This document shows, in pieces, positions 11,706 through 57,489 of a stretch of 64,000 bases of DNA. Source of the stretch: Patescibacteria group bacterium (GTDB lineage Bacteria > Patescibacteriota > Patescibacteriia > JAHJFT01). The translations under genes were made by a program, and so were the position numbers. The notes under the pieces are model-generated. The model did no database searches, was not told the DNA's origin, and worked only from the letters and a program-made list of their open reading frames with translations. Position 1 is the first letter of the stretch. Each line of letters opens with the position of its first letter. Location: the NCBI GenBank assembly GCA_028710985.1, contig JAQTTB010000001.1, positions 19,280 through 83,279 on the forward strand, written 5' to 3'.

Positions 11706-11731
11706 AAAACTACTTTCGCATCAATATTATC

Positions 11732-11960
11732 GTCATTCCCGCGAAGGCGGGAATCCAGAAACAGTATACCTTGCGGATTCGATTTATAAACTGTCACACA
11801 AATCACTCCAAAGCGGATTGCAGTCTTCAATGAATTTAATCTTTTAGACCCTTTCCACTTATTGGAGGATGCAAATATAGAACTGCCGATAATCGGACAT
11901 AGCATAAATAAGTAGCCCCGAGATTAATTGGTTGTGGATTCCCGCCTTCGCGGGAATGAC
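11732..11960. repeat. MITE-like unit bounded by 26-bp perfect terminal inverted repeats, each a REP-type hairpin
   Basis: GTCATTCCCGCGAAGGCGGGAATCCA (11732-11757) is the exact reverse complement of TGGATTCCCGCCTTCGCGGGAATGAC (11935-11960). The arms are 177 bp apart. Each arm is itself a palindrome (ATTCCCGC-GAAG-GCGGGAAT). It occupies the gap between two co-directional genes. Confidence 0.7.
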
Positions 11961-11964
11961 AGTT

Positions 11965-41396: not shown

Positions 41397-41789
41397 ATGG
41401 GCGAAACTATCAAATCATTTGAGGACTTGCTCGTTTGGCAAGAGTCGCACAAGCTCATGATTGACGCTTATGGGTTCGCGGACCGCTATTTGCCGCCGGA
41501 AGAAAAATACAATCGCATTTCTCAAATAAAACGCTGTTCAAGCTCAATCCCTGCCAATATCGCCGAAGGTTATGGTCGATTTCATTTCTTGGAAAATATC
41601 CAATATTGCCGGCAAGCCCGAGGTTCACTTGATGAACTTAAAAACCACATCATCGCCGCCCGAGACCTAAAGCAGGCTCCTCCGGAAGAATGTGCCAAAT
41701 TTATCCAAAAATGCAATTATGTACGGGCTATCCTAAATAACTACATTAACAAAACTCATGATCTCTATATTGAAAATAAGCAAAAATAG
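41397..41789 (+). CDS. four-helix-bundle protein (23S rRNA intervening-sequence protein family)
   Basis: 130-aa ORF: FEDLLVWQESHKLMIDAYGF...RISQIKRCSSSIPANIAEGYGRFHFLENIQYCRQARGSLDELKNHI. Confidence 0.85.
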   Translation: MGETIKSFEDLLVWQESHKLMIDAYGFADRYLPPEEKYNRISQIKRCSSSIPANIAEGYGRFHFLENIQYCRQARGSLDELKNHIIAARDLKQAPPEECAKFIQKCNYVRAILNNYINKTHDLYIENKQK

Positions 41790-43028: not shown

Positions 43029-43263
43029 TAAAATCCCTCTCTGCCTCTCCCTTCCTGCCTGCCGGCAGGCAGGTTGCATACTTTTGGTTACAAAAGTATG
43101 TCCTGCTGAAAGCAAACAAGAGTGGTGCTAGAAAAGATAATTATTGCCCAGACAGGTGGCAGGCAAGAACTTAAAAATCCCAATATTAAAACAACTTGTA
43201 CGATAATATATAATAGGATTCCCCCGGTACATTGAACCTGGATTCCCGCCTTCGCGGGAATGA
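43029..43263 (+). repeat. mosaic palindromic-unit repeat, copy A
   Basis: In order: AAAATCCCTCTCTG..CTCTCCC; the 20-nt perfect palindrome CCTGCCTGCCGGCAGGCAGG (43053-43072); the hairpin CATACTTTTG-GTTA-CAAAAGTATG; a ~130-nt body; and the REP hairpin TGGATTCCCGCCTTCGCGGGAATGAC (43238-43263). 43051-43263 aligns with 56985-57198 at roughly 85-90% identity by eye. Confidence 0.85.
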
Positions 43264-43370
43264 CAAAAGTAAGGCAGGAATGACAAATGGCGCTAAGATT
43301 TTTATAGCAAGATTCCCGCCGGAGCCTGCCCTCATGCAAATGGGGGGGGTGGCTAAAAATATCGTCAACC

Positions 43371-43405
43371 AAAAAACCACTCCGACGTTACGTCGAAGTG
43401 GTTTT
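43371..43405. terminator. bidirectional terminator after the Wzy_C-TPR gene
   Basis: AAAAAACCACTCCGACG-TTA-CGTCGAAGTGGTTTT: ~11-bp GC-rich stem with one mismatch, flanked by an A-run and a T-run. It lies 12 nt downstream of the stop at 43417. Confidence 0.65.
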
Positions 43406-43416
43406 GAATTTTAATC

Positions 43417-45660
43417 TTATTGCCCCGCCTTCGCTTCTTTCTCGTCAATCATTTTCAGAAACTCATCCGTATCCGCGGATATTGAGGGATCCAACTGTTT
43501 GGCAATATTCGCGTACAACCGCGCGAGCTCATACTCCCCGACTTCAAAATATGCCGCCGCAATACCGGCATATAACCGCGGATCGTTTTCATCAATATTG
43601 TCAATCGCAAAATTATAAAGTTCAATCACCCTCGGCATATTGCCGGCTTTAGCATTAAGTTCAACCATCGCCGCCACTTCCGGAAGATTTACCGGATGTC
43701 CGCCGATTGATGCCGATTTTTCAAATGCCTCAAGTGCTTTATCTTCCCACTCGGCCTCATAGTATGCAATACCTAAATTCCACCATGACTCCGTGACATT
43801 GGGATCGAGGTTCACTGTCTCCAGATAATACTGGACAGCCTCATCGGTGCGGCCAAGATTCAAGAGCGCCTTACCGCGCACAAAACGCAACTGCTGACGA
43901 TCGGGAGAATACCTTAGCGCCTCATCAATGTCCGCGAGCGCCTGTTCATGGTGCGTCGGATCAATCTTACCAAGCTCGAGCTGAATCAAGCTCATGAGAT
44001 AATAATTATATATATTCATGGGATGAAGCGGCACAGTTGCCTTTAGCGCATCGTATGATCGCTCAAGATACTCAGCGAGCTCATCGCTTGGCATTTGCAT
44101 TGAGCGGCTAATTTGCGCCATCTCTCGGCTATAGTAAAGAGGAACCAAATCCGGATATTGGTTTGAGATAGCCATGCCTTTTTCAAATGCTGCGGCCGAA
44201 CCTTTATAATCCCCTGCCTGTGACGCAATCACTCCGCTCCGCACCCAGGTGGAAGCAAACGCGGTCCGAAAAGTAAATAAATACAAAACCGCAAACGAAA
44301 AAATTATCAAGACCGCGAGCCACGCTCCGGCAACGGCTGGAGTATTGATAAACAATCTTCCCTCTTTTTTCGGTTCGGTTGTCTCGCTCTGCCACCAGGC
44401 CAGGCAGAAATAAAACATAATCAATGCATTCGGCTGGTCAAAGATAAAAAGATTTTGCACGAAATATCCGATCAGAATTCCAATTGAGCCGCAATAAATA
44501 TGGGTATCGATTTTACCGCCCTTGAAGGCTTTGGTGAGCTGAATGATTATGAGAGCGAATAAGGCGAGATATGCCGCCGTACCGACCACGCCCGTATTAT
44601 TCAGCATATCCATCATCTGGTTATGCGCATGGTCAAACCATGTTTCGTAGAACGAAAACTCCAGTGACTTTGGATTGTAGTATTTATTGAAAGTATAAAA
44701 ATAATTTTCCGGACCCCAACCAAAAACCGGACGCTCCAAGAATCCCTTCCACGCGATTTCCCAAGCAATAAAGCGCGTCGCCGCCGTGCCACCGGTTAAC
44801 GAAATATCTCGGAAGCGATTGAGGCCGGGAACCTGCGCGGTCCAGGCCTGATCTTTAATCAGCCAAAATCCAGCCGACGCAAGGATTATTGCCAAAAATA
44901 TACCCGCGGAAATTATGCGGATCTTTTTATTATTTTTAAGTATTGCGTAAAGCGCGAGATACACGAGCCCGGCGAGAAAAACTCCAACCATTGCGCCGCG
45001 TGTTTCGGCGAAAAGAAAAGCCAAGAACTGTATTGCGAGCATGGCTCCCCACATTGCCTTGGTTGACCACCGCACGGCTTTTTGCAGAAGAACGAGCGTA
45101 ATGAACATAGTGAAAATCAAATACGCAGCCAAGAAAATCGGATTATTCATAAACGCGCCGGTACGAGCGCCGGTTTGCAGCACCAATTCCGGCGCCACGC
45201 GCTGGATAAAAGCGACAAACGACAGCGCCACGCTCACACCCACATTGAAAATTAAAACTTTTTTCCATTCGCGCCAGCCGCGGAAAACCGAAATTGCCAT
45301 AAAATAAAACAGGAGATAATGGAGAAGCGGCCAAAAACCGGTCATACGTTCGTGATAACTCCAGAAGCTGCGATTCGAATCAACGCCAAAAATCACGGCT
45401 AAAAAAAGTCCGATGAAATACGCCGCAAGCCCGTACATAATAAGCGACCGCCGCGGCCGGTATTCCGGCTTGCGCGCGAGAAGATATATATACCACGGCA
45501 ACGCGCTCATGAGCACGATCATAAGATAGACCGTCTTGCCAAAAATATACGGGTAAACCGTCCATGGCAAAAAAATAAACGGCATCACGAGAGCCGCATA
45601 TACGCTAATTTTTACCCACCAATATGCGATGCGGTCCATTGTTTCAAGATTGTTATTCAT
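43417..45660 (-). CDS. O-antigen ligase family (Wzy_C) polytopic membrane protein with C-terminal TPR domain
   Basis: 747 aa: FAETRGAMVGVF...RFIAWEIAWKGFLERPVFGWGPENYF...WFDHAHNQMMDMLNNTGVVG. The last ~250 aa are TPR-like (ALRYSPDRQQLRFVRGKALLNLGRTDEAVQYYLETVNLDPN...). Confidence 0.85.
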   Translation of the reverse strand: MNNNLETMDRIAYWWVKISVYAALVMPFIFLPWTVYPYIFGKTVYLMIVLMSALPWYIYLLARKPEYRPRRSLIMYGLAAYFIGLFLAVIFGVDSNRSFWSYHERMTGFWPLLHYLLFYFMAISVFRGWREWKKVLIFNVGVSVALSFVAFIQRVAPELVLQTGARTGAFMNNPIFLAAYLIFTMFITLVLLQKAVRWSTKAMWGAMLAIQFLAFLFAETRGAMVGVFLAGLVYLALYAILKNNKKIRIISAGIFLAIILASAGFWLIKDQAWTAQVPGLNRFRDISLTGGTAATRFIAWEIAWKGFLERPVFGWGPENYFYTFNKYYNPKSLEFSFYETWFDHAHNQMMDMLNNTGVVGTAAYLALFALIIIQLTKAFKGGKIDTHIYCGSIGILIGYFVQNLFIFDQPNALIMFYFCLAWWQSETTEPKKEGRLFINTPAVAGAWLAVLIIFSFAVLYLFTFRTAFASTWVRSGVIASQAGDYKGSAAAFEKGMAISNQYPDLVPLYYSREMAQISRSMQMPSDELAEYLERSYDALKATVPLHPMNIYNYYLMSLIQLELGKIDPTHHEQALADIDEALRYSPDRQQLRFVRGKALLNLGRTDEAVQYYLETVNLDPNVTESWWNLGIAYYEAEWEDKALEAFEKSASIGGHPVNLPEVAAMVELNAKAGNMPRVIELYNFAIDNIDENDPRLYAGIAAAYFEVGEYELARLYANIAKQLDPSISADTDEFLKMIDEKEAKAGQ

Positions 45661-45661
45661 A

Positions 45662-47620
45662 TTATTTTATTTCAACGGCATTAATATTGTCAAAAACGCC
45701 ACTGATAAAGCGCAGATTAATTTTATTATTATAAATTTCCGCGATGGCGATTCTCACCTCTCCGACAATATAGTCATAAAATGCTTTCAAGTCAAACTGA
45801 TTCGCCTGCGTCGCCCAGTTTGCGCTGCGGAGGAACGCGCCATTCCGATCGAATGATTTTATATATATATTTCCGTCTGTTTTATAAGTAACCAGTATCT
45901 CTTCTTCTTCGCCCGTATCCAAATTTTGCGTCGCAACGAATATTGGCCCCGTGATTTTCTCTGCCGCTTGAAAATTTGAAACCAAGACGCCACTCTTCCT
46001 AAATATCTTAATATGCAAAACACCGGCATCAATAAATCCCACGATTATTTCATCCGTGTCATCGGCATCAATATCTCCAGCCGTGACCGTAACGCCGCCG
46101 CGAAAACCAGAAGTATACGCCATAAAATTACCCTGAATTTCCCCTCTTTCATTAAACACTAGTATATGCGGACCGCCGCCCGGACCCGGCGCGGTGATAA
46201 TTTCATCGTTCACCGTCCGGCTGTCCACATTTCCGACGGCGATATTCACGCCACCGCGGAAAAGCGAATTATACGCAAAAAATTGTCCGTACAATTTCCC
46301 TGTCTCGCTAAAAATACGCACCTGCGGACCGCCGCCCGGACCCGCGCCGACCACAATTTCTTTTTGACCGTCATTATTTACGTCGCCGCTCTGAGCCGTG
46401 AACCCCTTTTTGAAACTATCCGGAAACACCGCGAAGCTATCTTTGACTTCCCCGCCGCTCCCAAGCTCACGGACAACCGGCGTAAAACCAAGCGGCGCAC
46501 CGATTACAAGCGATGAACCGCTCTTTGCCGCTTCAAGCGCCAACTCAAGCGCAGCGCGCGCATCCACGCGCGTTCCCAAGCCTCCGGCAAAATCCGGATT
46601 GATCCCGTCAATTATCACGCCGCTTTTTACCAAAATTTCATTGATTTCACGAGCCGAGAGCCCGGGCGCGATTGATTTCACGAGTGCGGACACGCCGGAA
46701 ACAATCGGCGCCGCAAACGAAGTGCCCGACCAATCGTCATCATAGAATGTATCAAAATCCGCAATTGCCGAGTTATAAACACGCGCGCTCCATATATCCA
46801 TGCCCGGTGCCGAAACATCAACGCAGGCTTTGCCAAAATTTGAAAATTTCGCTTTTTGATCCAACGTGTCGGTTGCCGCGACTCCAAGTACGTATATTTC
46901 ATTCTCATATTGATCAATGCACACCGGAAATTCATCGTACATATCCAAGTTCGAGCCGCCCGATTCGTCCGGCGTATTGCCGGCCGCCGCCACTACTACT
47001 ACTCCCGCTTCCCAGGCGCGGCGCACCGCAGTTGACATATCCTCGCTAAAATTAAAACCTACAAAACTCAAATTAATCACATCCGCACCATTTCGAATGG
47101 CGTAATAAATCGCTTTTGCCACATTGTCCGAGAATCCGTTACCCGTGGCATCGAGCACCTGAAGCGGCATTATCTTGCTCTCCCAGGTGATTCCGGCCAT
47201 GCCGTTCCGATTATTCCCTTCGGCTGCGATGATGCTCGCCACCGCCGTGCCATGGCTAATTCCCTCTTCCGCATATCCGTTGGAAAAATTCGGCAATATA
47301 TTTCCGTTATTATCCGAGAAATTCCATCCATTCACATCATCAATATAATCATTCTTATCATCATCGATTCCGTTTGCCGGAATTTCATCTTCATTGATCC
47401 AAGCATTGCCATCCAATTCCGGATGCGAAATATCCACGGCCGTATCAATCACTGCGACAATCACCTTCGGACTGCCGGTCGAAATATCCCAGGCGCGTTC
47501 GGCATCAATCTGACGCAAATACCACTGACGCGAAAAATCCGTATCGTTTGGGGTGAAAGCCTGCGCGCCTTGAACCGCAACGAATACAAAAATTATTGTG
47601 CAGAATATAAACTTTTTCAC
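45662..47620 (-). CDS. secreted subtilisin-like (S8) serine protease fused to FG-GAP/VCBS beta-propeller repeats
   Basis: 652 aa with a GTG start and signal peptide MKKFIFCTIIFVFVAVQGAQA. Catalytic triad: AVIDTAVD, HGTAVASI, SGTSFAAPIVSG. C-terminal repeats: FxAY...FRGGVxVxxGDxDxDxxDEIIxGxGPGGGPxxxVF. Confidence 0.9.
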   Translation of the reverse strand: MKKFIFCTIIFVFVAVQGAQAFTPNDTDFSRQWYLRQIDAERAWDISTGSPKVIVAVIDTAVDISHPELDGNAWINEDEIPANGIDDDKNDYIDDVNGWNFSDNNGNILPNFSNGYAEEGISHGTAVASIIAAEGNNRNGMAGITWESKIMPLQVLDATGNGFSDNVAKAIYYAIRNGADVINLSFVGFNFSEDMSTAVRRAWEAGVVVVAAAGNTPDESGGSNLDMYDEFPVCIDQYENEIYVLGVAATDTLDQKAKFSNFGKACVDVSAPGMDIWSARVYNSAIADFDTFYDDDWSGTSFAAPIVSGVSALVKSIAPGLSAREINEILVKSGVIIDGINPDFAGGLGTRVDARAALELALEAAKSGSSLVIGAPLGFTPVVRELGSGGEVKDSFAVFPDSFKKGFTAQSGDVNNDGQKEIVVGAGPGGGPQVRIFSETGKLYGQFFAYNSLFRGGVNIAVGNVDSRTVNDEIITAPGPGGGPHILVFNERGEIQGNFMAYTSGFRGGVTVTAGDIDADDTDEIIVGFIDAGVLHIKIFRKSGVLVSNFQAAEKITGPIFVATQNLDTGEEEEILVTYKTDGNIYIKSFDRNGAFLRSANWATQANQFDLKAFYDYIVGEVRIAIAEIYNNKINLRFISGVFDNINAVEIK

Positions 47621-47701
47621 AGGCTAAAAATTCATAAGTTATACGGATATGATACCATTTTTGCGCAAAAAATACACACTCATGCCATCCATCCCCAACC
47701 T

Positions 47702-47739
47702 AAATCCCGCCCCCGGGCGTCCCCAGGGGCGGGATTTTT
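47702..47739 (-). terminator. GC-rich hairpin terminator after the surface-protein gene
   Basis: AAATCCCGCCCC (47702-47713) pairs with GGGGCGGGATTT (47726-47737), with a 12-nt loop and flanking A/T runs. It starts ~40 nt downstream of the stop at 47778. Confidence 0.5.
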
Positions 47740-47777
47740 GAGTTACTGAATATTGCCGATTACTCGGCCAGTCAAGA

Positions 47778-50700
47778 CTAGAAGGTCAATACCACGTTTT
47801 CGGTGAGATCCTTGACGAGATACTCGTCAGTCCAATCACCGGTTGACAACGTATCTAATTGAGCGTTGTGCGGTATTGCCGCCTTGTCTGACCAGACAAG
47901 GTAAGCAGCAACTTCGCCACCCACTACACCGGTTGCATCCAAGTTCGGACCACGTACGGTGCCGACCGCGGCTGCATTCAGGTGATAGGTGTAGATGGTT
48001 GAGCTGCCAGTCTTAATAGTTACGTTAAGCGACTCGCTGGAGCCTGCACCGCCAACCGTACCCTTGAGGGTAAAGATGTGGCCGGAGCCAGAAATGCTCT
48101 GCTCTGTGCCGCTCGTGTAACTAATAAAGATTGTGCCCGAGGCATCGGTTGCGCCTTCAACAGTATTGCCGAGGTTATCAGTGATGGTAACCAAATCGGA
48201 AATATCTGTACCGTCCTGGAACCACTTCAAGGTATCAACCGTGAACGCACCGCTCTTAGTGAATTCGAATGTGAGTTTCGCGACACCCGCATCGCCTGCA
48301 CTGTCTGCGGTAACCTTGGTCTTGTAGAGTTCAATCGTACCGTTGGCCAGGCTCGAGCTAGCTAACGCTTGCTTGGCAAAAGTAAGCTTGGTCTTGCGGA
48401 TAACCATTGGGTTGCCCGCGAGGACCGCCGAGGCCGCCGCGTACACGCGCTCGCCGGACATGGCGCCCGTGCCCTTCACATTGTAACTATTGGTATAGTT
48501 CGCATCCCACTCGCCGGTCGTAACATTGTATTCAACCGCGAGTTTCGGGTTGTTGCCCGAGGTTGCGCCTGCGTCAATCGCGTTCAGCTTGCCAACCACC
48601 TGGAAGGTCACACTGCCGTCAGCCGGCACGGTGATCGGGGTGGAAAGCGTGATGTCGGTCGCCGTCGCCGAACCCGGGAACACATCCGTGCCCGAGGAGA
48701 CGATTACGCCGTCCTTCTGAATCGCGAGGTACTTGAAGTCACTATTTGCGCCGCCGCTATAGCGTTGCAGGCGGATCTTGTCAACGGAGATATTTTCGTA
48801 CTGTGAAGTAATCTTGGCTTGGGCAAAGGTTGTCCAAGCATCCTTACCGGCAATGACAATGTCGGTTGACGGATTTGATTCCGCCGCGATTGTCAATGTA
48901 CCGGAATTCTTCACAGTCTGGAAGATTGTCGGACCGTTGTTGATCGGATTGCTCCAAGTCACGTCGCCGTCAGTCGCAGTAACTGAATTGGCATCTGCGT
49001 CTTCGGCCGAAATATCGGTTTCGAGAGCAATACCGACCCAGAATGTGTCATCCGTACCGCCGGAAGTCGCCACTGAATCAAGTATTGCCTTGACAACCAA
49101 TGTCTTGGTTTCACCCGCCGGAATGCTATAGCTGAGACCGTCAAATGTGGCGGTACCCGCCGTTGCATCCGGGCTCTCGGCCGTGCCGAGCTGAGTCGTG
49201 CCATCCCACAGCGTAAGCTGGGTAATGACATCGTCCAGTTGAGCCGCGGTATAACCCGCACCGTTCACATTGCCCTGACCAGTGACTTTAACGCTCGTCA
49301 CTTTGATTGCGCTCTGTGAACCAGCTGTGAACACAAAACCAGATGAAGCAACATCTGATGTCTTCTTGACATAGGTGTCACTCACCGGAGTCGCGGCCAG
49401 CTGAACTGTCAGACTCGATGTCTTGACCGTCATGGTGTTGCCGGTAATAACCGCATTCGGCACGATTTGGGTTACAGCGAGATATTCGCCTGTGGCATTG
49501 TTCTTCACATAATCGGCAGCAAAGGCATTCAACTTGGCCACATATTGGCGATCGCTGTTGAACCAGGCGTTGTTTGCCACATCGGCCTTGAGGGCCAAAT
49601 TCTTGGTTGTGCCCGCGTTCACATAAAATGAATCGCTAACCACCCAAGTGCAAGTAGTTGCATCCTCACCACAGGCGGGACTTCCGCTTGAAAGTTGAGT
49701 CGGACCGGCGACAACTTCGCCGGAATCGGTATCAACTAATTTGATGTCAGTGAACAGATCTGTGGTGGATGCGTCAATGTAGTCATCACCATTGATACCT
49801 GCCAGTGTGAAGCTGATCTTGCGGACCTCGAGAGTGTTCTCGGCCGCAGTCATGCCAAACTGGAAGAAGATCTGATCCTGGCCGGCCTTTGGCATAGTGC
49901 CAGTCGCCGGACCATTGTAAGCGATCGTCAATTGACCGCCCTCGGTATTCGTGGTTACTGAATCGCCGCTATCAAAATCATCAATGTTCACTGCCGCGCC
50001 CCAGCCATAGGTATTATCTGTGGCATCGACATCGGTAGTGTACTCAAGATAGGTAATGATAGAGCGGCCGCCCTTGCCCACGACATCGGCCTTGACATAA
50101 AGAGTCTTGGTTGTGCCGTTGGAAATGAGATAAGGCGTGGCGAGGATAAAGTTTATCTTATCGCCGACAATTGTCGCTGTTTCGGCCACTAATTCTGTAC
50201 CAACATACAGCTTCAGGTTGGTAACGTCGCTGTTCACGACCGTACCGGCCTGAGCGATGCTGATTTGATTAAGCTTAATATCCGCGCTTGCGGCAGTAAG
50301 CTTAAATGAAGAAATCGTGGCTGCAAGTGATCCAACTGTTACGTTGGCCGGATCTGAACCTTCATTCACCGTCAGAGTGGCGGCATCCTGTGCACCAACC
50401 GTGAAGGTGTTGCCGCGTATCGGGAAACTGCCCGAAACCGTGGCGGTTGTGCCAACCTTACTCGTCGCAACGAGCTCTAGGGCATGTTCATCCGCAGCTA
50501 TTGCGGTTGAACTCAAATCGCCGCGGACCGTGAGATACTTGGTCGTGCCGGCGGTAATCGTCAAGTTCAGGTTGTTGAATTGAGCCTCGTTTGAGCTGGT
50601 ATTGATACTGCGACCGCTCGTCAGTCTTGTTGAACCCTCATAGAGGTAGACGTTCGTGAAGTCGCTCGCTGTACCAACGCCAAGGCGATGGAATGTCAGG

Positions 50701-51557
50701 GTATTAAGAATGACATTGCCGTCCGAGCTCGCGGTCACAGCGACCTTAATAAGCTGCACGCTTGACGAACCCTGGGCGACAGTTGCGCCCGCCGGGGTGT
50801 CAGAGGCCAAGGCCACGGCAAGACCGGTGCCTGTGCCGGAAACGCCGGCTACAAGATCCGTAATGCCCGCTTCACCGCCGGTAACCGCGGTTCCGTCCGC
50901 ATAAGTTACATCGGCCGCGACTGGGCTAATTACGAAACGCCATTGGAACATGTTGGCATCAAATGCCGCCTCGTTCGCAATTGCGCGCTTCTGACCATCC
51001 TGAATGTAGTAGACGGATGCACCAGAAGCATACTTAATCAAGCATCCATTCGGATGCACATAAGTGCTGATTGAGGTGCCGATTGAATAGTTGGTGAAGA
51101 ATGAATCCGGAACGTCAACTACCCAGCTGGCCCAATTTGTTCCCCAGAGTTTCTGGGCAACGGCCTCGGTCTCAACCCAATGCAAAACACCGCCGGTCGT
51201 CACGGCATAAACCTTGGGATCGGTGGTAATTTTGATTAGGAATGTACCTGGGCGGATTGTGATATTTCCGCCGATAGAGACTGCCGCGAGTTCCGCGTCA
51301 GTGATCTCTTTCAGGGTTGAGAAATCGGGGTACCATGAATAATAGGTGTTCTCGTTCGGGAAAACGTATCTCTTACCATCTGCTGCGTAATAATACACCG
51401 CCGGTTGGCTGGCCTTAATAAGGTCGCCTGCGGACAAGGTCGCTGCTTCCGCTGCCAAAGGCATTATGAAAGCCGCAAAACCGATTGACCACGCCATGGT
51501 GGTGATAACTACGCCAACGGTAAGGATCCTCTTTGAAATGCGTAGAACTTCAGTCAT
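47778..51557 (-). CDS. large secreted modular surface protein (S-layer-like or adhesin-like; family not recognised)
   Basis: 1259 aa with signal peptide ...FIMPLAAEA/AT. Three N-terminal ~60-aa modules: PAVYYYAADGKRYVF, PKVYAVTTGGVLHWV, ASVYYIQDGQKRAI. Then repeated T/S/A/G/V-rich ~100-130-aa modules ending ITAGTTKYLTVRGD, ISNGTTKTLYVKADV, VNAGTTKNLALKADV, IPAGETKTLVVKAIL. Confidence 0.7.
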   Translation of the reverse strand: MTEVLRISKRILTVGVVITTMAWSIGFAAFIMPLAAEAATLSAGDLIKASQPAVYYYAADGKRYVFPNENTYYSWYPDFSTLKEITDAELAAVSIGGNITIRPGTFLIKITTDPKVYAVTTGGVLHWVETEAVAQKLWGTNWASWVVDVPDSFFTNYSIGTSISTYVHPNGCLIKYASGASVYYIQDGQKRAIANEAAFDANMFQWRFVISPVAADVTYADGTAVTGGEAGITDLVAGVSGTGTGLAVALASDTPAGATVAQGSSSVQLIKVAVTASSDGNVILNTLTFHRLGVGTASDFTNVYLYEGSTRLTSGRSINTSSNEAQFNNLNLTITAGTTKYLTVRGDLSSTAIAADEHALELVATSKVGTTATVSGSFPIRGNTFTVGAQDAATLTVNEGSDPANVTVGSLAATISSFKLTAASADIKLNQISIAQAGTVVNSDVTNLKLYVGTELVAETATIVGDKINFILATPYLISNGTTKTLYVKADVVGKGGRSIITYLEYTTDVDATDNTYGWGAAVNIDDFDSGDSVTTNTEGGQLTIAYNGPATGTMPKAGQDQIFFQFGMTAAENTLEVRKISFTLAGINGDDYIDASTTDLFTDIKLVDTDSGEVVAGPTQLSSGSPACGEDATTCTWVVSDSFYVNAGTTKNLALKADVANNAWFNSDRQYVAKLNAFAADYVKNNATGEYLAVTQIVPNAVITGNTMTVKTSSLTVQLAATPVSDTYVKKTSDVASSGFVFTAGSQSAIKVTSVKVTGQGNVNGAGYTAAQLDDVITQLTLWDGTTQLGTAESPDATAGTATFDGLSYSIPAGETKTLVVKAILDSVATSGGTDDTFWVGIALETDISAEDADANSVTATDGDVTWSNPINNGPTIFQTVKNSGTLTIAAESNPSTDIVIAGKDAWTTFAQAKITSQYENISVDKIRLQRYSGGANSDFKYLAIQKDGVIVSSGTDVFPGSATATDITLSTPITVPADGSVTFQVVGKLNAIDAGATSGNNPKLAVEYNVTTGEWDANYTNSYNVKGTGAMSGERVYAAASAVLAGNPMVIRKTKLTFAKQALASSSLANGTIELYKTKVTADSAGDAGVAKLTFEFTKSGAFTVDTLKWFQDGTDISDLVTITDNLGNTVEGATDASGTIFISYTSGTEQSISGSGHIFTLKGTVGGAGSSESLNVTIKTGSSTIYTYHLNAAAVGTVRGPNLDATGVVGGEVAAYLVWSDKAAIPHNAQLDTLSTGDWTDEYLVKDLTENVVLTF

Positions 51558-51782
51558 AAATAATTTATATCCTTTTGAATTTAATTCTTATCACGCAAGC
51601 GGCCATTGGCCCCGACCTTTTAGCCTGCGCGTTAATTAACTCTGGTACAAGTTCCGACGCCCCAACATAAAGTTGGCGGTCGGAATCCCGACTTCCGCCT
51701 GCGGCGGAATGTCGGGACATCAGCCCATACCCCGGAAACGGCTTCCATAAAAACCGCCTTCGGGGTATTTCCGATGATTAAT
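51558..51782 (-). promoter_or_regulatory. 225-nt structured leader and promoter region of the surface-protein gene
   Basis: The minus-strand RNA would contain AUACCCCG...CGGGGUAU (51729-51768) and a 14-bp bulged hairpin UCCCGACAUUCCGCC-GCAG-GGCGGAAGUCGGGA (about 51684-51716). A GGAAC box (51655-51651) is a possible ECF-type -35. There is a weak SD, AAAGGA, before the ATG. Confidence 0.45.
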
Positions 51783-52991
51783 TTAATTCGTTACCGCTTT
51801 TGTCGTGGTTGCGGCTCCAGCCACTGCTGGCGTAGATGAAGTCTGAATTACGGGAATGATTGGGTCAGTCGATGAAACCCCAACCGGTTCGGTTATAATC
51901 GGCGTCTCGCTTGCTTCACTCTGATTTTCGGCTCCAACCGCCGAAGCCAGGGTATTCACTTCTTTTACCGCCGCAATCGCCCCGACTAAATCATTATTTT
52001 CCAAAAGTTCCCGTGCCTCCACAACTTTTTCCGCCAGTTGATCGGCAGTCGCGGTTGATGCTCCCGTTACCCCGATAACTTCACCCGTGCCGCTCGCCGC
52101 ACCAGTAATCACCTCTCCGGTCGAAGACGCGGCCTCCGAACCCACCGGGGTAGAAATTACCTCCGCGGTACCCGAAGCGCTCGTTACTCCAACCAACGCT
52201 GCCGCGGCTTCGGCTCTTTCCAGCTTGCTCGTAATTTTTTCAATTACTTCTTCCTCGGTGATTCCTTCGGCCTGACCCTGGGCGTGTTTCTCTACGATGA
52301 CTTCAACGGCCTTAACTGCCGTTACCTCAACAACCGCTTTCGCTTCTTGGACATCATTCTTATTGACATCGGAAAGCTTGTCCATGGTTTCCTGCAATTT
52401 ATTTTCAAACTCTTCAGATTTTTCATCAACGATTTTCGCCACCTCAACCGCCTTCTTTGAAGAACTTTTTTGTTTAATTTCTTCCAGATCATCCTGAACT
52501 GTTTTCATGCCTTTTTTAAAATCCGCCATGGACTTGGTTAGCTTTTCTTCCTTCCTTATATCGGGTTTCTCAATCAACTTAGTCGCTTCTTCCAGCCGCC
52601 GTCCGGCAAAATCAATGCGCAGTTTTGTTTTAACTTCCCGGGCCGGCGAAAGGGTTATTTGCGCGCCTTCGGAAAATAATTTTACGCCGTAAAGCGCATC
52701 ACCCGGCAAGCTGCCAAAAGACGCACTCACTGTCGCGGTCCAGCTGCCAAATACCAGAAATACGATAACCATGGCTGCGACAACCGGACGAAACGCCTTA
52801 GACCAGCCGGTGCTTACATCCACTGCCAATGAAAAATTTTCAAGCAGACTGCCGGTTTTCTCCGCCGCCGGCGCGTCCTGTCTTGCGTGAGCAAGCATGC
52901 TTTCGCGCGTTGACAATACCCAAGCCTCACGCGCTTTGCCGCCCGCTTTCGTCTTACCGAGATTATTCAATTGTTCTACCAATTTATCCAT
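51783..52991 (-). CDS. single-pass membrane protein, putative anti-sigma factor (DUF5667-like ectodomain)
   Basis: 402 aa. A ~75-aa cytoplasmic N-terminus, a TM helix (VVAAMVIVFLVFGSW), then SLPGDALYGVKLFSEGAQITL...KLRIDFAGRRLEE, a coiled-coil and an Ala/Thr/Ser/Gly-rich tail. It starts 9 nt after the sigma-factor stop. Confidence 0.5.
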   Translation of the reverse strand: MDKLVEQLNNLGKTKAGGKAREAWVLSTRESMLAHARQDAPAAEKTGSLLENFSLAVDVSTGWSKAFRPVVAAMVIVFLVFGSWTATVSASFGSLPGDALYGVKLFSEGAQITLSPAREVKTKLRIDFAGRRLEEATKLIEKPDIRKEEKLTKSMADFKKGMKTVQDDLEEIKQKSSSKKAVEVAKIVDEKSEEFENKLQETMDKLSDVNKNDVQEAKAVVEVTAVKAVEVIVEKHAQGQAEGITEEEVIEKITSKLERAEAAAALVGVTSASGTAEVISTPVGSEAASSTGEVITGAASGTGEVIGVTGASTATADQLAEKVVEARELLENNDLVGAIAAVKEVNTLASAVGAENQSEASETPIITEPVGVSSTDPIIPVIQTSSTPAVAGAATTTKAVTN

Positions 52992-53000
52992 TTATCGGGT

Positions 53001-53546
53001 TTATTTATTGTCTTGCTGCTCCATAATTTCACGTAATGCCGCGAGCGAGCGGTGAAGCAGAACCCGCACATTGTTTCCGCTTTTCTGCAAAATACTCGCG
53101 ATTTCGCCAGCTGTCATATTATCCAGATACTTCATCACCACAATCTCGCGATACTCATCCTTTAGTTTATTCAGCGCACGGTAAATCCTCGCCAAGTCAG
53201 ACTGCTTCTCCAGTTCCGCCAGTCCAACGATGTCCACTTCTCCGGCCGTCTCTTCCATGAGCTGAATATCGCTCTTTCTCTGCCGATAATGGTCAATGAC
53301 CAAATTCCGCGCAATTGTGTAGAGTAGGGCTCCCACACTTTTCACCGGCTGGCTGCCTGCAAGATAATCCCAGGCTTTTAAAAAAACCTCTGAACTCAAG
53401 TCTTCAGCTTCTTGTTCCGAGGATACTTTAAAAAAAATAAATCTATATATCTTGGCGCCGTAATCATCATATAACTCTGCAAATGCCCCTGCGTCCTGCT
53501 TCGCCTTGATCTTATAGACCAGTATTTTTTCTTTGAATTTATTCAT
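53001..53546 (-). CDS. RNA polymerase sigma factor, ECF (sigma-70 group 4) type
   Basis: 181 aa. Region 2: FAELYDDYGAKIYRFIFFKVSSEQEAEDLSSEVFLKAWDYL...IARNLVIDHYR. Region 4: EYREIVVMKYLDNMTAGEIASILQKSGNNVRVLLHRSLAALR. Confidence 0.85.
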   Translation of the reverse strand: MNKFKEKILVYKIKAKQDAGAFAELYDDYGAKIYRFIFFKVSSEQEAEDLSSEVFLKAWDYLAGSQPVKSVGALLYTIARNLVIDHYRQRKSDIQLMEETAGEVDIVGLAELEKQSDLARIYRALNKLKDEYREIVVMKYLDNMTAGEIASILQKSGNNVRVLLHRSLAALREIMEQQDNK

Positions 53547-53638
53547 CTATATTGACGATAAGATGATACGAATGTTACACAATCCGCCTTCATTTGTAAA
53601 GTCTTTTAGTCTCAAATTCGGTTAAATCACCCGTTTTC

Positions 53639-53667
53639 TTGACAAACTTTCAAGCTGCACATATAAT
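53639..53667 (+). promoter_or_regulatory. consensus sigma70 promoter of the small HTH gene
   Basis: TTGACA (53639-53644), exactly 17 nt, TATAAT (53662-53667). It is immediately followed by the palindrome AAGTCTA-N8-TAGACTT (53668-53689), a possible operator. Confidence 0.7.
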
Positions 53668-53702
53668 AAGTCTAAACTAGCCTAGACTTTTAATATAAGC
53701 CC

Positions 53703-53999
53703 ATGTCTTCATCCATTCGCTTATCCGTATCCGAAGCCGCCCGGCTTTTTGGCATTAGTGAAAAAACCCTGCGCCGCGCCATCATTAATAAGGAAATCAA
53801 CTATATCGTGGTTGCCGGCCGGTACAAGCTAAATTTTGAAAGCCTGGTCAAGTGGTCCCAGCAAAAAACCACGGTGCGCCGCAAATCCGAAAAATACGGC
53901 ATCGACCAATTTGTGGATAAATGGCGCCTCTCCGCCACCCTCTACTCCCCCAACCCACCCGCCACGGAACAAGAGAACAATTCAACAATACAACAATAG
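53703..53999 (+). CDS. small helix-turn-helix DNA-binding protein (excisionase/MerR-type HTH)
   Basis: 98 aa: LSVSEAARLFGISEKTLRRAIINKEINYIVVAGRYKLNFESLVKW. The C-terminal 11 codons are encoded by the SAACAA word array. Confidence 0.7.
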   Translation: MSSSIRLSVSEAARLFGISEKTLRRAIINKEINYIVVAGRYKLNFESLVKWSQQKTTVRRKSEKYGIDQFVDKWRLSATLYSPNPPATEQENNSTIQQ

Positions 54000-54074
54000 A
54001 ACGACCTATAAAAAAACAAGCGTTTTACCTATGCTTGTTTTTTTGTTGTATTGTTGAATTGTTGCGTTGTCCGC
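53967..54074. repeat. two facing 8-nt periodic word arrays around a bidirectional terminator hairpin
   Basis: 53967-54006 reads GAACAAGA GAACAATT CAACAATA CAACAATA GAACGACC. 54043-54074 reads TTGTTGTA TTGTTGAA TTGTTGCG TTGTCCGC. 53976-53996 and 54043-54063 are exact 21-nt reverse complements. The inner terminator is AAAAAAACAAGC-GTTTTACCTAT-GCTTGTTTTTTT (about 54010-54044). Confidence 0.9.
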
Positions 54075-55229
54075 TTACGCCGTTTCCAGCGCGAACTTGC
54101 ATTCCGGCTTCAGATCGAAATAAAGTCCGGAAATGTCGCGGCAGATGTCTTTCCAGTTATATTTTTCATTCACGAAAATCTTCGCGCGCGCGCCCAGCTC
54201 TTTCAGATTTTCGGTTTGCGGCAAATACGTCTCAAGCTTACGGATTAAATCTTCAACATTCTTATTTTCAAAACTGATTCCCGCTTCACTCACGACTTCC
54301 ATATTTTCCGGGATATCGCTCGCGATCACCGGCAAACCCCAGCCCATCGCTTCAAGCAAAGCGATCGGCAAACCTTCGGATTCGGACGGATGAACCAGCG
54401 CGTAAGCGTTGCCAAAAAGCGCATTCAACGGCTCGCCGTTCTGAAAACCGGTAAATACAATAGATTCGTCGCCGGCCGCCATCTCATGAAGTTCTTTCAC
54501 GTAATCATCTGTAAAAGCCGAGTCGCCGACGATCACGAGTTTTTTATTGCCAATTATCTCCGGATTACGGAATTTTAGAGTTTTATAAGCATCAATCAAA
54601 TAATGGGCGCCCTTATGACGCACCAGCCGCGAAACCATAATAATATACTCTTTAGGCTCAAGACCAAACTTTTTAAGATACTCGGTGTCGGCCGGATTCT
54701 GCATCCTAACGCCGTTCGGAATATATTGAGTCATGGAATCATAAGCTTCGGAGCAATACTGATTCAAAGTACGCGAAACCGTAATGGTGCGGTCCGCGAA
54801 ACGGCACGCTGACCATTCGCCAAGGCGAAGCATAGCGCGGGCAATAAATCCCCATTTTTGATGCTTGCGATCAATGCAGTGAAAAGTCACCACCACTTTG
54901 GTGCTGGGTCGCAAAATTTTCGGAAGCCACGAGAGTAGCGCCGGCCCGACGCCGTGAATGTGGATAATCTCAAAACCGCTCCGGCAGGCATGAATAATGC
55001 TCAAGAAAGTATGGCTAATGGCATCAAGATGCTTGGTCTTAAGGCTCGGGGTATAAATAAGATGCACCCCGTTAATCTGTTCCTCGTGGCCCTTTGAGTA
55101 CCACGGGCGACAGTATACAAAAACCTCCAGGCCGAGTTCAGCCAGGCCGCGCGAAAGCTCATCCACGTGGCGTTCAATACCACCGAAGATAGCCGGGATG
55201 CCTTTTTGTCCGATCATTGCTATTCTCAT
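54075..55229 (-). CDS. glycosyltransferase, GT4-like
   Basis: 384-aa ORF: MRIAMIGQKGIPAIFGGIERHV...ESEGLPIALLEAMGWGLPVIASDIPENMEVV. Confidence 0.85.
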   Translation of the reverse strand: MRIAMIGQKGIPAIFGGIERHVDELSRGLAELGLEVFVYCRPWYSKGHEEQINGVHLIYTPSLKTKHLDAISHTFLSIIHACRSGFEIIHIHGVGPALLSWLPKILRPSTKVVVTFHCIDRKHQKWGFIARAMLRLGEWSACRFADRTITVSRTLNQYCSEAYDSMTQYIPNGVRMQNPADTEYLKKFGLEPKEYIIMVSRLVRHKGAHYLIDAYKTLKFRNPEIIGNKKLVIVGDSAFTDDYVKELHEMAAGDESIVFTGFQNGEPLNALFGNAYALVHPSESEGLPIALLEAMGWGLPVIASDIPENMEVVSEAGISFENKNVEDLIRKLETYLPQTENLKELGARAKIFVNEKYNWKDICRDISGLYFDLKPECKFALETA

Positions 55230-55353
55230 ACCATGATTATTTGTAATGCGATTAATTTGTTATGTAATCTCATTAAATCCTCGTCTTGCCCGCCGAAATC
55301 CCGACCGAACGAAGTGAGCGTCGGGACGAAGGAGGGTCATTGCTATTCTCATA
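55214..55353. repeat. 17-bp direct repeat (TCATTGCTATTCTCATA) flanking a 106-bp insert that carries a REP-like hairpin
   Basis: Copies at 55214-55230 and 55337-55353, exactly 123 nt apart. The repeat contains the GT4 start (minus-strand ATGAGAATAGCAATGA). The insert contains ATCCCGAC-N15-GTCGGGAC (about 55298-55327). The upstream copy opens a 30-codon ORF, MRIAMTLLRPDAHFVRSGFRRARRGFNEIT*. Confidence 0.8.
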
Positions 55354-55413
55354 TTAAACAACCCACTATACCACATTTTTGCGTTTTTGTCAACTCTCGA
55401 GTCCGGCCAGCTC

Positions 55414-55442
55414 TTGACAAAACCCGCAATTTATGATATACT
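55414..55442 (+). promoter_or_regulatory. sigma70-type promoter upstream of the GC-rich lipoprotein gene
   Basis: TTGACA (55414-55419), 17 nt, TATACT (55437-55442). It leaves a ~215-nt leader before the ATG at 55665. Confidence 0.55.
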
Positions 55443-55664
55443 TTACCGTTAAAGTCAAAATGGAACAGTCGTATCTTATGACAAATTTTGGCTAAAGCAA
55501 GCCCTTTACAACCTTCTCCCAAGCGTCGAATCTACATTTTCTGGCTATTTTCAGCAATGGTTGGCACACAGTTCAACCCCACCTGCTCGGCTTATATTAT
55601 GCAGATTCATCGCTTAGGAGAAGCAAAACAACCTAAACGCAAAAAACACCGAGGAGGGTGTAAA

Positions 55665-56699
55665 ATGAAGAACTCCAGGATAGTGCTGATTCTCTGCGCC
55701 CTGGTACTGATGGCCTGCGAGACGAGGTACGTGGACGTGGGCGGCGAGCCCGACACCTCCATCGACACCGCGTCCGACAGCGTGGAGCTCTGCTCCGACG
55801 GCCTGGACAACGACATGGACGGCCTGGTCGACTGCAACGACAACGACGGCGACGAGAACTGCCCGCCGTGCGCGGACGCGTCAACCGACGCCGTGGCCGA
55901 CGAGATCGAGGACAGCGCAGAAACCGACGTCCCGCCCGTGGAGCTCTGCTCCGACGGCCTGGACAACGACTTCGACGGACTCGTGGACTGCAACGACGGG
56001 GACGACTGCTGCGATGAAGCAGTGTGCGTTACGAGCGAGCACTGCGCTTCGGAAGACGCTTCAAGCGACTCCGAAGAGGAAGCCGACGCAGTCTCCGACT
56101 CGGGTGCGGATTCGGATCCCGCCGAGGACCCCGTGCCTGACACTGATCCCGACACCGCCTCCGACCCGGATAGCGCAAGCGATCCGGACGCGGTCTCTGA
56201 CCCGGACGTGGTGGACGCCGAAGCCGACGCAGCTGACATCCTCCACTCCGGCCTGGCCACGTTCAAGTGGTGCCGGCCCATGACCATGGCGCGCCCCGAC
56301 CACATTCTCGCGGAATGCTTTGTCTGGGGAAGCCTCTATGAAAGCTGGGATGACTCCTGGGAGCTGGCAACCGGCTCTCCGGACTTCGTCGCACCGGCCG
56401 ACAGCGACTGCATCGAGTTCACCCTGCCAGATCTGGATTACACGCTCCTCGGAATAAGCGTAGAGTGCAACATCACTGCCTATTCCGACTCGGCGTACGG
56501 GCCGTGGGGACGCATCTACGCTCTCGGCGAGTGCACGTGCGGCGGCAGCTGTGTCGTAAAAGGCACGCTTACCGTCCGTTCCGGTCCCGACGCTGATGAC
56601 GCAACCGCCTTGGATCTCACGAGCCTAGTCGTGCAGAATCCGCGATGCGCGTCCCTGAGCGACCAGGCCGGCAACTACGTCCTCTCACCTATTCCATAG
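55665..56699 (+). CDS. GC-rich secreted lipoprotein with two TSP3-like Ca-binding Cys/Asp repeats and a poly-acidic linker
   Basis: ATG at 55665 is preceded by GAGGAGGG. Lipobox: [18 protein letters not shown]. Repeats: [29 protein letters not shown] and [24 protein letters not shown]. Then a D/S/P/A-rich linker and a ~160-aa Cys-containing C-terminal domain. The ORF-track TTG start at 55488 is rejected. Confidence 0.75.
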
Positions 56700-56718
56700 G
56701 GGGTTCGTCTCTCCCCAT

Positions 56719-56768
56719 GGGCAGGATAAGCAAGGTCCCCCCCTACCTTGCCCCTGCCCGCCTTTTTT
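56719..56768 (+). terminator. rho-independent terminator of the GC-rich gene
   Basis: GGGCAGG...CAAGGT-CCCCCCCT-ACCTTG...CCTGCCC forms a nested stem (56719-56759), followed by CCTTTTTT. Confidence 0.7.
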
Positions 56769-56809
56769 CAGCGAATCATGCAAATGATTCATTGAAAAAA
56801 GGCAAAAAT

Positions 56810-56844
56810 AAAAAACGCCCCGTGTTTACCGAGGGCGTTTTTTT
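56810..56844. terminator. second, bidirectional terminator hairpin
   Basis: AAAAAACGCCC-CGTGTTTACCGA-GGGCGTTTTTTT. Confidence 0.6.
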
Positions 56845-56984
56845 GTGCATCTTAGTCAGAACATGGGGTTCGGGGGCGCAACTGAGCATGGCGCTAGGAA
56901 GCAGTGAATTGCCTATTTGCCGAGAGCGAACCCGCCTGCCAACGCCTGGCGTAGGCCTGGCGGGCAGGTTTGCGACCCCGAAAC

Positions 56985-57384
56985 TTCCTGCCTGCCGGCA
57001 GGCAGGTTGCATACTTTTGGTTACAAAAGTATGTCCCGCTGAAAGCGAACAAGAGTGATGCTAGAAAACAATAATCAATACCCAGACAAGCGGCAGGCTG
57101 TGGCTAGAAAATCCCAATATTAAAACAACTTGCACGAAAATATTTAATAGGATTCCCCCGGTACATTGAACCTGGATCCCCGCCTTCGCGGGGATGACGA
57201 AGAGAGCACTTTGCCACTTACCGTCATTCCCGCGAAAGCGGGAATCCAGAAACAAAGCCCCTCCAAAATCCCTCTCTGACACGTCGCTCGCGAGCGACGT
57301 GTCTCTGTCTCCCCCTTCCTGCCTGCCGGCAGGCAGGTCAGCCACCCCGAAACTTTTTGGTTACTTTTTGGTTACAAAAAGTAA
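56985..57384 (+). repeat. mosaic palindromic-unit repeat, copy B (expanded)
   Basis: 56985-57198 parallels copy A, with the same palindrome, hairpin, body and REP. It is followed by an inverted second REP (57223-57248), then the AAAATCCCTCTCTG...CTCCC unit interrupted by the palindrome ACACGTCGCTCGCGAGCGACGTGT. A second CCTGCCTGCCGGCAGGCAGG follows (57317-57336), then the hairpin TTACTTTTT-GGTTAC-AAAAAGTAA. Confidence 0.85.
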
Positions 57385-57459
57385 CGCGCCGGAGGCAAGA
57401 GACCAGAGGTAAAAAGATGCAAGAAAAAAATGGGAGGCCCAAACGATTGTAGGAGGAAC

Positions 57460-57489
57460 AAAAAGACGTGCCTTTAAGCACGCCTTTTT
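57460..57489. terminator. bidirectional terminator after the 631-aa gene
   Basis: AAAAAGACGTGC-CTTTAA-GCACGCCTTTTT. On the minus strand it lies 10 nt after the stop at 57499 and is followed by a U-run. Confidence 0.65.

Follow-up and report, generated by a model that had tools for sequence, protein, structure and literature searches.

Repetitive extragenic palindromes (REPs) of the CGTC-1 family carry an unpaired CGTC tag (TGTC or CCTC are allowed), an 8-bp stem beginning with AT, a 4-nt loop and a CCA tail (PMC3733652). They are known from five phyla, are found for the most part head-to-head, as dimers that separate convergent or co-directional genes, and have been equated with dRS3 of Neisseria and RPE-6 of Rickettsia (Di Nocera, De Gregorio & Rocco 2013, PMC3733652). 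No dedicated transposase has been found for the CGTC REPs, and the genes of REP-associated tyrosine transposases (RAYTs) are not flanked by them (PMC3733652). In Neisseria, where dRS3 is defined as ATTCCC-N8-GGGAAT, dRS3 inverted repeats placed around repeat sequences (RS) of 50-150 bp constitute the Neisseria intergenic mosaic elements, or NIMEs (PMC1797815). Here we analysed a 64,000-nt stretch of a Patescibacteria group bacterium (contig JAQTTB010000001.1, positions 19,280 to 83,279 of the forward strand), hereafter the window, in which two composite repeats with such a REP at one end bracket a 13.7-kb block of genes (43268-56983), the block being context and not part of the element. The explanation that we favour, with a probability of roughly 0.65, is that a composite of selfish palindromic modules colonised two convergent spacers, that recombination, gene conversion or mobilisation in trans copied it from one to the other, and that it brackets the block only incidentally.

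Two composite repeats with a REP at one end

The two copies are direct repeats of ~217 bp each, copy A at 43051-43267 and copy B1 at 56984-57201. Global alignment gave 197 identical positions out of 222 (88.7%) and an uninterrupted identical stretch of up to 53 nt, and blastn-short aligned the copies at 89.8% over 215 nt (E 7e-67), in agreement with the first-pass annotation, which had proposed two direct repeats of ~214 bp at 85-90% identity. Gap-free repeat finding returned the pair as 43051-43135 versus 56984-57068 (85 nt, 96%) and 43132-43267 versus 57066-57201 (136 nt, 85%). The common order of parts proposed for both copies was also recovered: a 20-nt perfect palindrome (CCTGCCTGCCGGCAGGCAGG, hereafter PAL20) is followed by a hairpin (CATACTTTTG-GTTA-CAAAAGTATG, hereafter hp2), a body of ~136 nt and a REP stem-loop. 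In copy A these parts were located at 43054-43073 (PAL20, RNA hairpin of -14.6 kcal/mol), 43077-43100 (hp2, plus strand, -13.0 kcal/mol, z -5.6), 43101-43238 (AT-rich body, plus strand) and 43239-43265 (REP, minus strand). In B1, alignment placed hp2, with the same sequence as in A, at 57010-57033 and the body at 57034-57172, both on the plus strand, between an exact PAL20 at 56987-57006 and the REP at 57173-57199 (minus strand).

Exact PAL20 occurs three times in the window (43054, 56987 and 57318), with 0.00 matches expected by chance. The third match belongs to B2, a diverged and truncated copy (plus strand, 57265 to approximately 57440) that was delimited by three-way alignment, folds and the PAL20 match, and that comprises a flank L', a 24-nt palindrome (57279-57302), PAL20 (57318-57337), hp2' (57360-57385, one pair longer than hp2) and a body-like remnant. 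B2 has the left flank of copy A (AAAATCCCTCTCTG...CTT); in the three-way alignment the latter (43030-43053, plus strand, AAAATCCCTCTCTGCCTCTCCCTT) was homologous to the left flank of B2, and 43038-43074 was 95% identical to 57302-57338. Copy B had been described as expanded by an inverted REP, a nested palindrome and a second palindrome-hairpin unit, and all three were found, the first at 57222-57248 and the second at 57279-57302. Scanning of the window revealed no partial copies beyond those described here, and hp2 and the body were confined to A, B1 and B2; the body of copy A, which has a GGCAGGC half-site at 43158-43164, had no other copy in the window beyond B1. Altogether, A, B1 and the decayed B2 are paralogues of one composite, which is lineage-specific and built of small palindromic modules.

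On its sequence features, the right-hand hairpin is assigned to the CGTC-1 REP family. Five REPs were present at three loci in the 64 kb. The terminal unpaired tag was CGTC at 11731, at 57222 and on the minus strand at 57196-57199, and TGTC on the minus strand at 43262-43265 and 11958-11961. The 8-bp stem starting with AT and the 4-nt loop appeared as ATTCCCGC-N4-GCGGGAAT four times and as ATCCCCGC-CTTC-GCGGGGAT once, and the CCA tail (GGGAAT-CCA) was found on the tagged strand in all five. Four of the five matched the dRS3 consensus ATTCCC-N8-GGGAAT, the REP of B1 being a compensated variant (ATCCCC...GGGGAT). Read on the minus strand, the REP of copy A consists of a TGTC tag, ATTCCCGC-GAAG-GCGGGAAT and a CCA tail, and the REPs at 11732-11758 and 11935-11961 match it at 100% over 27 nt. 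The latter two delimit a unit (11731-11961) between two minus-strand genes (GT2 and epimerase), in which a REP, a 177-nt spacer and an inverted REP reproduce the dRS3-RS-dRS3 layout of the Neisseria NIME unit. In A and B1, the dRS3-type hairpin is found at the right end alone and PAL20 occupies the left end. Beyond B1, the inverted REP at 57222-57248 (plus strand, CGTC-ATTCCCGC-GAAA-GCGGGAAT-CCA) forms a head-to-head doublet with the REP at 57173-57199, and the whole doublet (57168-57252) folded as one long hairpin (-29.7 kcal/mol, z -8.1).

The modules differed in their distribution elsewhere. Among plasmids and phages, blastn detected exact REP cores in Azospirillum, Neisseria, Photobacterium, Sphingomonas and others, as well as in a Microcystis phage, and more than 120 IMG/VR stretches carried them. 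The sequence upstream of gonococcal pilE holds TCGTCATTCCCGCGAAAGCGGGAATCTAG...CTGGATTCCCACTTTCGTGGGAATGACGG, nearly the same as the window REPs (PMC7593972). In the plasmid and phage search, the REP portion of the composite alone matched. The hp2 pattern had no exact match in JGI metagenomes and the core of the nested palindrome had none in IMG/VR. A PAL20-N(150-180)-REP pattern was present in four metagenome contigs with spacers unrelated to the window body, indicating that both modules co-occur in arrays in other organisms. By these searches, hp2 and the 136-nt body appear specific to this genome.

The REP stem reads ATTCCCGC-CTTC-GCGGGAAT in copy A (at 43242) and ATCCCCGC-CTTC-GCGGGGAT in B1 (at 57176). 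As the first reading had noted, this double change keeps the pairing: the substitutions 43244 T>C and 43259 A>G affect both partners of a single stem pair, which is restored in B1. In the consensus folds of both strands of copies A and B1, this was the sole pair altered on both sides, and long-range pairs were never variable between the copies. Differing positions amounted to 2 of 56 in the stems versus 22 of 161 elsewhere (Fisher one-sided p 0.026), and the chance that the two stem changes are partners and restore pairing was ~0.006. Because two sequences are too few for a covariation test, family-wide statistics of the REP stem were used in its place. Across 2.4 Mb of fetched loci, 37 stem variants were doubly compensated versus 7 singly unpaired, and the B1 form (CCCCGC/GCGGGG, loop included) was seen 12 times elsewhere, for instance in L161. 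The compensated change of B1 is typical of the REP family and the stem matters. The earlier claim that the compensation argues for selection on structure was thus upheld in that the hairpin is kept; selection on the RNA is not shown by it, and the pattern is compatible with RNA constraint, with recognition of a DNA hairpin by an enzyme or with palindrome-templated correction.

Both copies lie at convergent gene ends, as originally described. The left spacer separates a GT4 gene (41855-43021, plus strand) from the Wzy_C-TPR gene (43417-45660, minus strand), and the right spacer separates an open reading frame (ORF; 55488-56699, plus strand), encoding a 403-aa acidic Cys-repeat protein, from the DUF11 gene (57499-59394, minus strand). 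In both spacers the composites are placed downstream of the plus-strand stop codon and ahead of a shared bidirectional intrinsic terminator, detected by terminator scan. The left terminator (43373-43405) adjoins the Wzy_C-TPR stop codon and is self-complementary over 33 nt (DNA fold -12.6 kcal/mol, z -5.8), and the right one (57460-57489) adjoins the stop codon of the DUF11 gene (-8.3 kcal/mol, z -4.4). None of the repeat hairpins has a U-tract after it in the terminator scan, so, if transcribed, they would be REP-like stabilisers or pause sites rather than terminators.

This arrangement could also reflect a selected cis-acting RNA that was duplicated because it is required by both upstream genes. 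It might be a small RNA gene, or a 3' untranslated region (3'-UTR) module with a role in stabilisation, processing or attenuation. Such an element would explain why the composite follows both plus-strand genes in one orientation and precedes the shared terminator, and would account for the three stable hairpins (-13 to -15 kcal/mol), the conserved or compensated stems and a promoter-like site in the body of copy A (43186-43214). In Escherichia coli, REPs, including those of bacterial interspersed mosaic elements (BIMEs), stabilise upstream mRNA. Nevertheless, we consider it unlikely: the element is absent from the orthologous spacers of relatives, its modules are also found in unrelated contexts, coding genes included, and covariation support was not obtained outside the three hairpins. 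Moreover, such promoter-like sites abound in this AT-rich stretch (34 versus 16 expected), and Rfam gave nothing at the gathering threshold anywhere in the window, the best sub-threshold matches scoring 19-29 bits against thresholds of 44-80 (E-value mode, chance level). A protein-coding reading was rejected as well. The ORFs 43088-43372 and 57061-57345 (minus strand, 94 aa each) use different registers and their palindromes yield the usual spurious peptides; no conserved ORF was found in A and B1, and the body of copy A holds only spurious ORFs.

The right spacer contains features that could point to a composite miniature transposon, that is, a hairpin-bounded segment that moves in one piece with the help of an enzyme encoded elsewhere. 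At 56975-56986 and 57344-57355, a 12-nt direct repeat (ACCCCGAAACTT, plus strand, read from the sequence) encloses 357 nt (56987-57343), with PAL20 at the start and the second PAL20 7 nt from the other end. The 24-nt nested palindrome of B2 (57279-57302) is an insertion bordered by a CTCTG duplication, the REP doublet folds like a REPIN, and 7-nt duplications were found at ~4% of PAL20 sites in other genomes versus 0% of controls. Against this, neither copy A nor the 217-bp unit has a flanking duplication or terminal inverted repeats, no transposase was found among the window ORFs scanned, and no dedicated transposase is known for the CGTC REPs (PMC3733652). With three copies the order of events is ambiguous, as is the ACCCCGAAACTT duplication, a single case of possible target duplication. 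As an explanation of the locus, a miniature transposon is therefore very unlikely in our view, although such mobilisation is compatible with the spacer colonisation that we favour, as its copying step.

Some minor features adjoin the composites. An imperfect nested palindrome (56930-56969; DNA fold -16.6 kcal/mol, z -3.4) lies upstream of B1, and decayed REP fragments (43276-43320, plus strand, read from the sequence) lie 3' of copy A as iterated half-REPs (CAGGAATGACAAA and AGATTCCCGCCGGAG). Past copy A (43256-43288) there is one reiteration of the REP 3' half (GGAATGAC[A/G]AA), and several are present in the metagenome contig L289 (~620-700), which shows the same half-REP iteration and may be a trace of the copying route of these repeats.

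The enclosed block in related genomes

By Pfam, the block contains genes for Wzy_C-TPR, an S8 protease, a 1259-aa protein, DUF5667, an extracytoplasmic function (ECF) sigma factor, HTH_17, GT4 and the acidic Cys-repeat protein, in agreement with the content first listed for it (Wzy_C-TPR, protease, surface protein, sigma pair, HTH, GT4 and GC-rich gene). The proposal of deletion or exchange of a block marked out by the repeats was not borne out. Flanking proteins matched those of a Patescibacteria metagenome-assembled genome at 100% identity; in the nearest relatives, at 52-63% protein identity, the full gene order is kept across both junctions: epimerase, 23S_rRNA_IVP and GT4, convergent with Wzy_C-TPR, followed by S8/FG-GAP, the ~1260-aa protein, DUF5667, ECF sigma, HTH_17, GT4 and the acidic protein, convergent in turn with DUF11 and GHL15/FG-GAP. 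None of PAL20, hp2 and REP was found in 95 kb of syntenic DNA of these relatives. Between GT4 and Wzy_C-TPR they have two plain terminators (L279) or an inserted PDDEXK_3 gene (L281), and in the spacer on the DUF11 side a simple terminator (L286) or different palindromes and duplications (L284). Since the relatives keep the gene order across both junctions with spacers that lack the modules, the 13.7-kb block is ancestral and the repeats are later, lineage-specific occupants of two tolerant spacers. The different repeat set in L284 suggests that the same spacer collects repeats independently in different lineages.

The spacers of the relatives had further particularities. That of L284 on the DUF11 side was expanded to 568 nt, with direct repeats at 11926-11951 and 12268-12293 and GC-rich hairpins at 11950-12060. 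In L281 and L282, the PDDEXK_3 gene stood in the GT4/Wzy spacer in place of the mosaic and was bordered by AACAGATT/AATCTGTT word repeats. The 23S_rRNA_IVP gene (four-helix bundle; 41397-41789) lies upstream of GT4 here and in all relatives (L279, L281 and L282), flanked by purine-rich and pyrimidine-rich low-complexity inverted stretches.

The same comparison bears on whether the direct repeats serve as homologous or site-specific substrates for deletion, excision or exchange of the block, as proposed for Neisseria NIME arrays. The direct orientation, the 217-bp length, the 88.7% identity and the 53-nt identical run would suit such a recombination cassette; the block encodes envelope and surface functions, and the NIME hypothesis ties dRS3 arrays to the exchange of adjacent surface genes (PMC1797815). 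The gene beside copy B is also the fastest-diverging of the cluster: the acidic protein was alignable in part with its positional counterpart in L284 (49% over 95 residues), much less than its neighbours, Wzy_C-TPR being 63% identical full-length in the relatives. The 403-aa protein itself gave no record match. Yet all relatives found keep the gene order across both junctions and lack the repeats, and no recombinase was found among the window ORFs scanned. No alternative junction appeared in any recovered contig, the short-read contigs being uninformative on variants: those of the same organism (SRR22315508/9) stop 30-31 nt into each repeat from either side, which is an expected graph break. 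Furthermore, these two spacers are the longest convergent ones among those tabulated from the window ORFs, and such spacers are the expected landing zones of REPs (PMC3733652). Taken together, a recombination cassette is improbable.

Direct repeats around a multi-gene block that includes an HTH_17 gene (excisionase-like fold) could likewise be read as the attL and attR sites of an integrated genomic island. This was contradicted by the synteny, as the HTH_17 gene and the whole block are in place in the relatives; in addition, no integrase was found, no tRNA is present at either end and the repeats are mosaics of dispersed modules. Per kb, the block has a GC content of 0.44-0.61; most values lie within 0.44-0.55, and the GC-rich gene accounts for the 0.61 peak. 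If a low-GC glycan region is set aside, this range and that of the flanks overlap for the most part, and we regard an island as a negligible possibility. This glycan-biosynthesis region (window ~16000-41000) contains a flippase, many glycosyltransferase and methyltransferase genes, asparagine synthase and radical SAM, and has a GC content of ~35-40% versus ~45-55% for the rest of the window.

A segmental duplication was also considered as the origin of the repeats and rejected, since the S8 protease and the GHL15/FG-GAP protein share FG-GAP repeats only (34-47% aa identity) and the genes adjoining each copy are unrelated. These FG-GAP repeats have a 156-nt period; at the nucleotide level, those of the S8 protease gene within the block (46043-46363) and of the GHL15/FG-GAP gene outside it (59559-59933) are up to 80-84% identical. 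The GC-rich gene (61%, 55488-56699) contains tandem 156-nt units at 55781-56004 and encodes an acidic protein with repeated motifs. Between the convergent HTH_17 and GT4 genes, an AT-rich inverted repeat (53969-54070, 34-nt arms, 85% complementary) is probably their shared terminator.

In the colonisation scenario that we favour, the modules would arrive by insertion into a tolerant 3' zone, and the composite would be copied from spacer to spacer by homologous recombination or gene conversion between arrays, or by in-trans mobilisation of a segment bounded by two hairpins. The hairpins would persist because their stem is required for propagation or recognition, or for palindrome-templated repair. 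The composite is probably transcribed, in which case they would form 3'-UTR stem-loops of the plus-strand genes. Given the 53-nt identical run in direct orientation, rare RecA-dependent deletion could still occur. In favour of this scenario, no transposase, integrase or RAYT domain was detected in any window ORF scanned. Several points weigh against it. Both the copy count and the enzyme search (RAYT, IS200/IS605 and IS110) cover only the 64-kb window of a 744,538-bp contig. There are three composite copies only, and the copying routes are not distinguishable. Neither a target-site duplication nor terminal inverted repeats surround the 217-bp unit, whose ends are unrelated hairpins. A and B1 point the same way with respect to their upstream genes, and differences are scarcer in their stems than in the body (p 0.026), which fits a selected RNA function too. 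Finally, the nearest relatives are at ~60% protein identity, with which a recent strain-level exchange of the block is still compatible.

PAL20 in other genomes

The scan of GTDB, with one genome per species, revealed exact PAL20 in at least 120 species genomes from about a dozen phyla; the expectation for a random 20-mer in the 596 Gb scanned is ~0.5 matches. Among the matches listed, the hosts included many Patescibacteria classes, Omnitrophota, Bacteroidota (cultured isolates too), Planctomycetota, Verrucomicrobia, Gammaproteobacteria, Bdellovibrionales, Thermodesulfobacteriota, Thermodesulfovibrionales, Chloroflexi, Elusimicrobia and Ignavibacteria. In IMG/VR, PAL20 was present in 35 stretches, with six copies on one 29.5-kb viral contig. 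The flanks were unrelated between sites and most sites were extragenic, open frames of at least 200 codons spanning 23% of them versus 70% of random positions. Flanking inverted repeats of at least 7 nt accompanied 9.4% of PAL20 sites versus 1.6% of controls, PAL20 being often at the hairpin tip, and copies were also found in REP-like loops (L022, L070 and L094) and nested in PAL20 itself (L021, L024 and L045). Exact 7-nt flanking duplications were observed at ~4-5% of PAL20 sites versus 0% of controls, some of them in heptamer tandem arrays. As signs of target-site duplication these are enriched but rare, too few to define a mechanism.

Insertions in genes were also found. In the window, a PAL20-like copy with one mismatch (10400-10419) lies inside the GT2 gene (9594-10838, minus strand) and encodes an additional LPTGRQV, an in-frame 7-residue insertion that none of 13 homologues has, not even one at 71% identity. 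The 9 nt that directly follow PAL20 in A and B1 (TTGCATACT) recur 4 nt past this copy, where they encode a conserved EYAM motif, a coincidence that we could not explain. Elsewhere, PAL20 is read in frame as LPAGRQ within the FtsK_SpoIIIE domain of a Saccharibacteria FtsK (L016 5955), within the GatB catalytic domain of another genome (L107 3773) and in several membrane proteins (L046 2000, L074 5886 and L077 4279). At a viral locus (L148 2284), PAL20 interrupts the variable loop of a tRNA-Met, and its removal in silico produced a standard 72-nt tRNA according to ARAGORN. In three candidate-phyla genomes PAL20 directly follows 5' tRNA fragments, always at the end of the D-loop (L018 4041, L040 2127 and L102 5992), and in Agriterribacter humi (L088 67) it was seen by eye in the D-loop of a tRNA-Arg(TCT) that is cut by the contig end. 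A general location inside intact tRNA genes was discarded, as ARAGORN restored a tRNA at L148 only, those of L018, L040 and L102 being 5' fragments. As to a link with 23S_rRNA_IVP genes, tblastn with the window IVP revealed adjacency to PAL20 at one locus only (L053).

Unrelated flanks, presence in many phyla and in viral stretches, in-frame insertions and nesting both in REP loops and in itself indicate that PAL20 behaves as an independent micro-insertion. The sequence was not found in the literature searched. We tentatively propose, while judging the odds to be against it, that PAL20 is an undescribed, cosmopolitan and ultra-small mobile palindrome that crosses phyla, possibly carried by phages, without a linked transposase. 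If so, spacers and hairpin loops would be its main landing sites, next to essential genes, where it is read in frame as LPAGRQ, and a tRNA loop. The window composites would then be a snapshot of PAL20-type modules and CGTC REPs assembling into NIME-like mosaics within the streamlined genome of a candidate-phyla bacterium.

Comparison with known systems

The finding is mostly an ordinary one, namely REP-type mosaics in convergent spacers with no sign of moving the enclosed genes. With it, the CGTC-1/dRS3 family and a NIME-like mosaic are recorded in Patescibacteria, far outside the listed phyla and outside Neisseria. The sharing of PAL20 sharpens the question of how palindromes without a transposase propagate and stay identical, and PAL20 offers a simple sequence for finding fresh insertions. 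On the practical side, these modules break short-read assemblies and yield recurrent spurious peptides in annotations (VIPAKAGIQ, DSRLRGND and LPAGRQ).

The window REPs resemble the described CGTC-1 REPs in their tag, stem, loop and tail, in the head-to-head doublet, in the location between convergent or co-directional genes and in the lack of a linked transposase, and their stem core is identical to that of the Neisseria and Azospirillum copies. In contrast to the described REPs, they occur in Patescibacteria, outside the five listed phyla, and are joined to other modules in a repeated composite (PMC3733652). NIMEs, which have been described as Neisseria-specific (PMC1797815), share with the window arrays the same REP type, AT-rich repeat sequences (an RS-like body with GC-rich hairpins), array lengths that vary by locus and the vicinity of surface-protein genes, and the unit at 11731-11961 has the dRS3-spacer-dRS3 layout with its 177-nt spacer. 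Copies A and B1 depart from this layout, as only one of their ends is a dRS3-type hairpin and the other is PAL20; in addition, the window arrays are short and come without evidence of exchange of neighbouring genes.

The first-pass annotation had compared the composites with enterobacterial BIMEs. This holds insofar as palindromic units and other short motifs are mixed in 3' intergenic regions in both cases. BIME units, unlike the window REPs, are GTAG-tagged (Y/Z), RAYT-mobilised and combined with defined motifs; the REPs of the window are CGTC/TGTC-tagged and no BIME motif was identified in it, so that the nearest analogue is the Neisseria NIME and not the BIME. Like the REPINs of REPIN-RAYT systems, the inverted doublet at 57173-57248 forms one long hairpin. 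These systems differ from the window in that no RAYT was found among the ORFs scanned and in that the 217-bp composite is not a REP doublet.

As for PAL20, its closest counterparts are other very short hairpin repeats that are nested or found in genes. Rickettsia palindromic elements, work on which is credited to Ogata and colleagues in 2000, reportedly lie within coding genes, and very small dispersed repeats are said to have been reported in cyanobacteria by Elhai and colleagues in 2008 (cited in PMC3116915). The GC clusters of fungal mitochondria are a further analogue. PAL20 differs from all three in being 20 nt long, perfect and identical across about a dozen phyla and viral contigs, whereas the known ones are lineage-restricted and either longer or imperfect. 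Altogether, the REP family was already known, and what is new here is the host phylum, this composite and PAL20 as a cross-phylum micro-palindrome.

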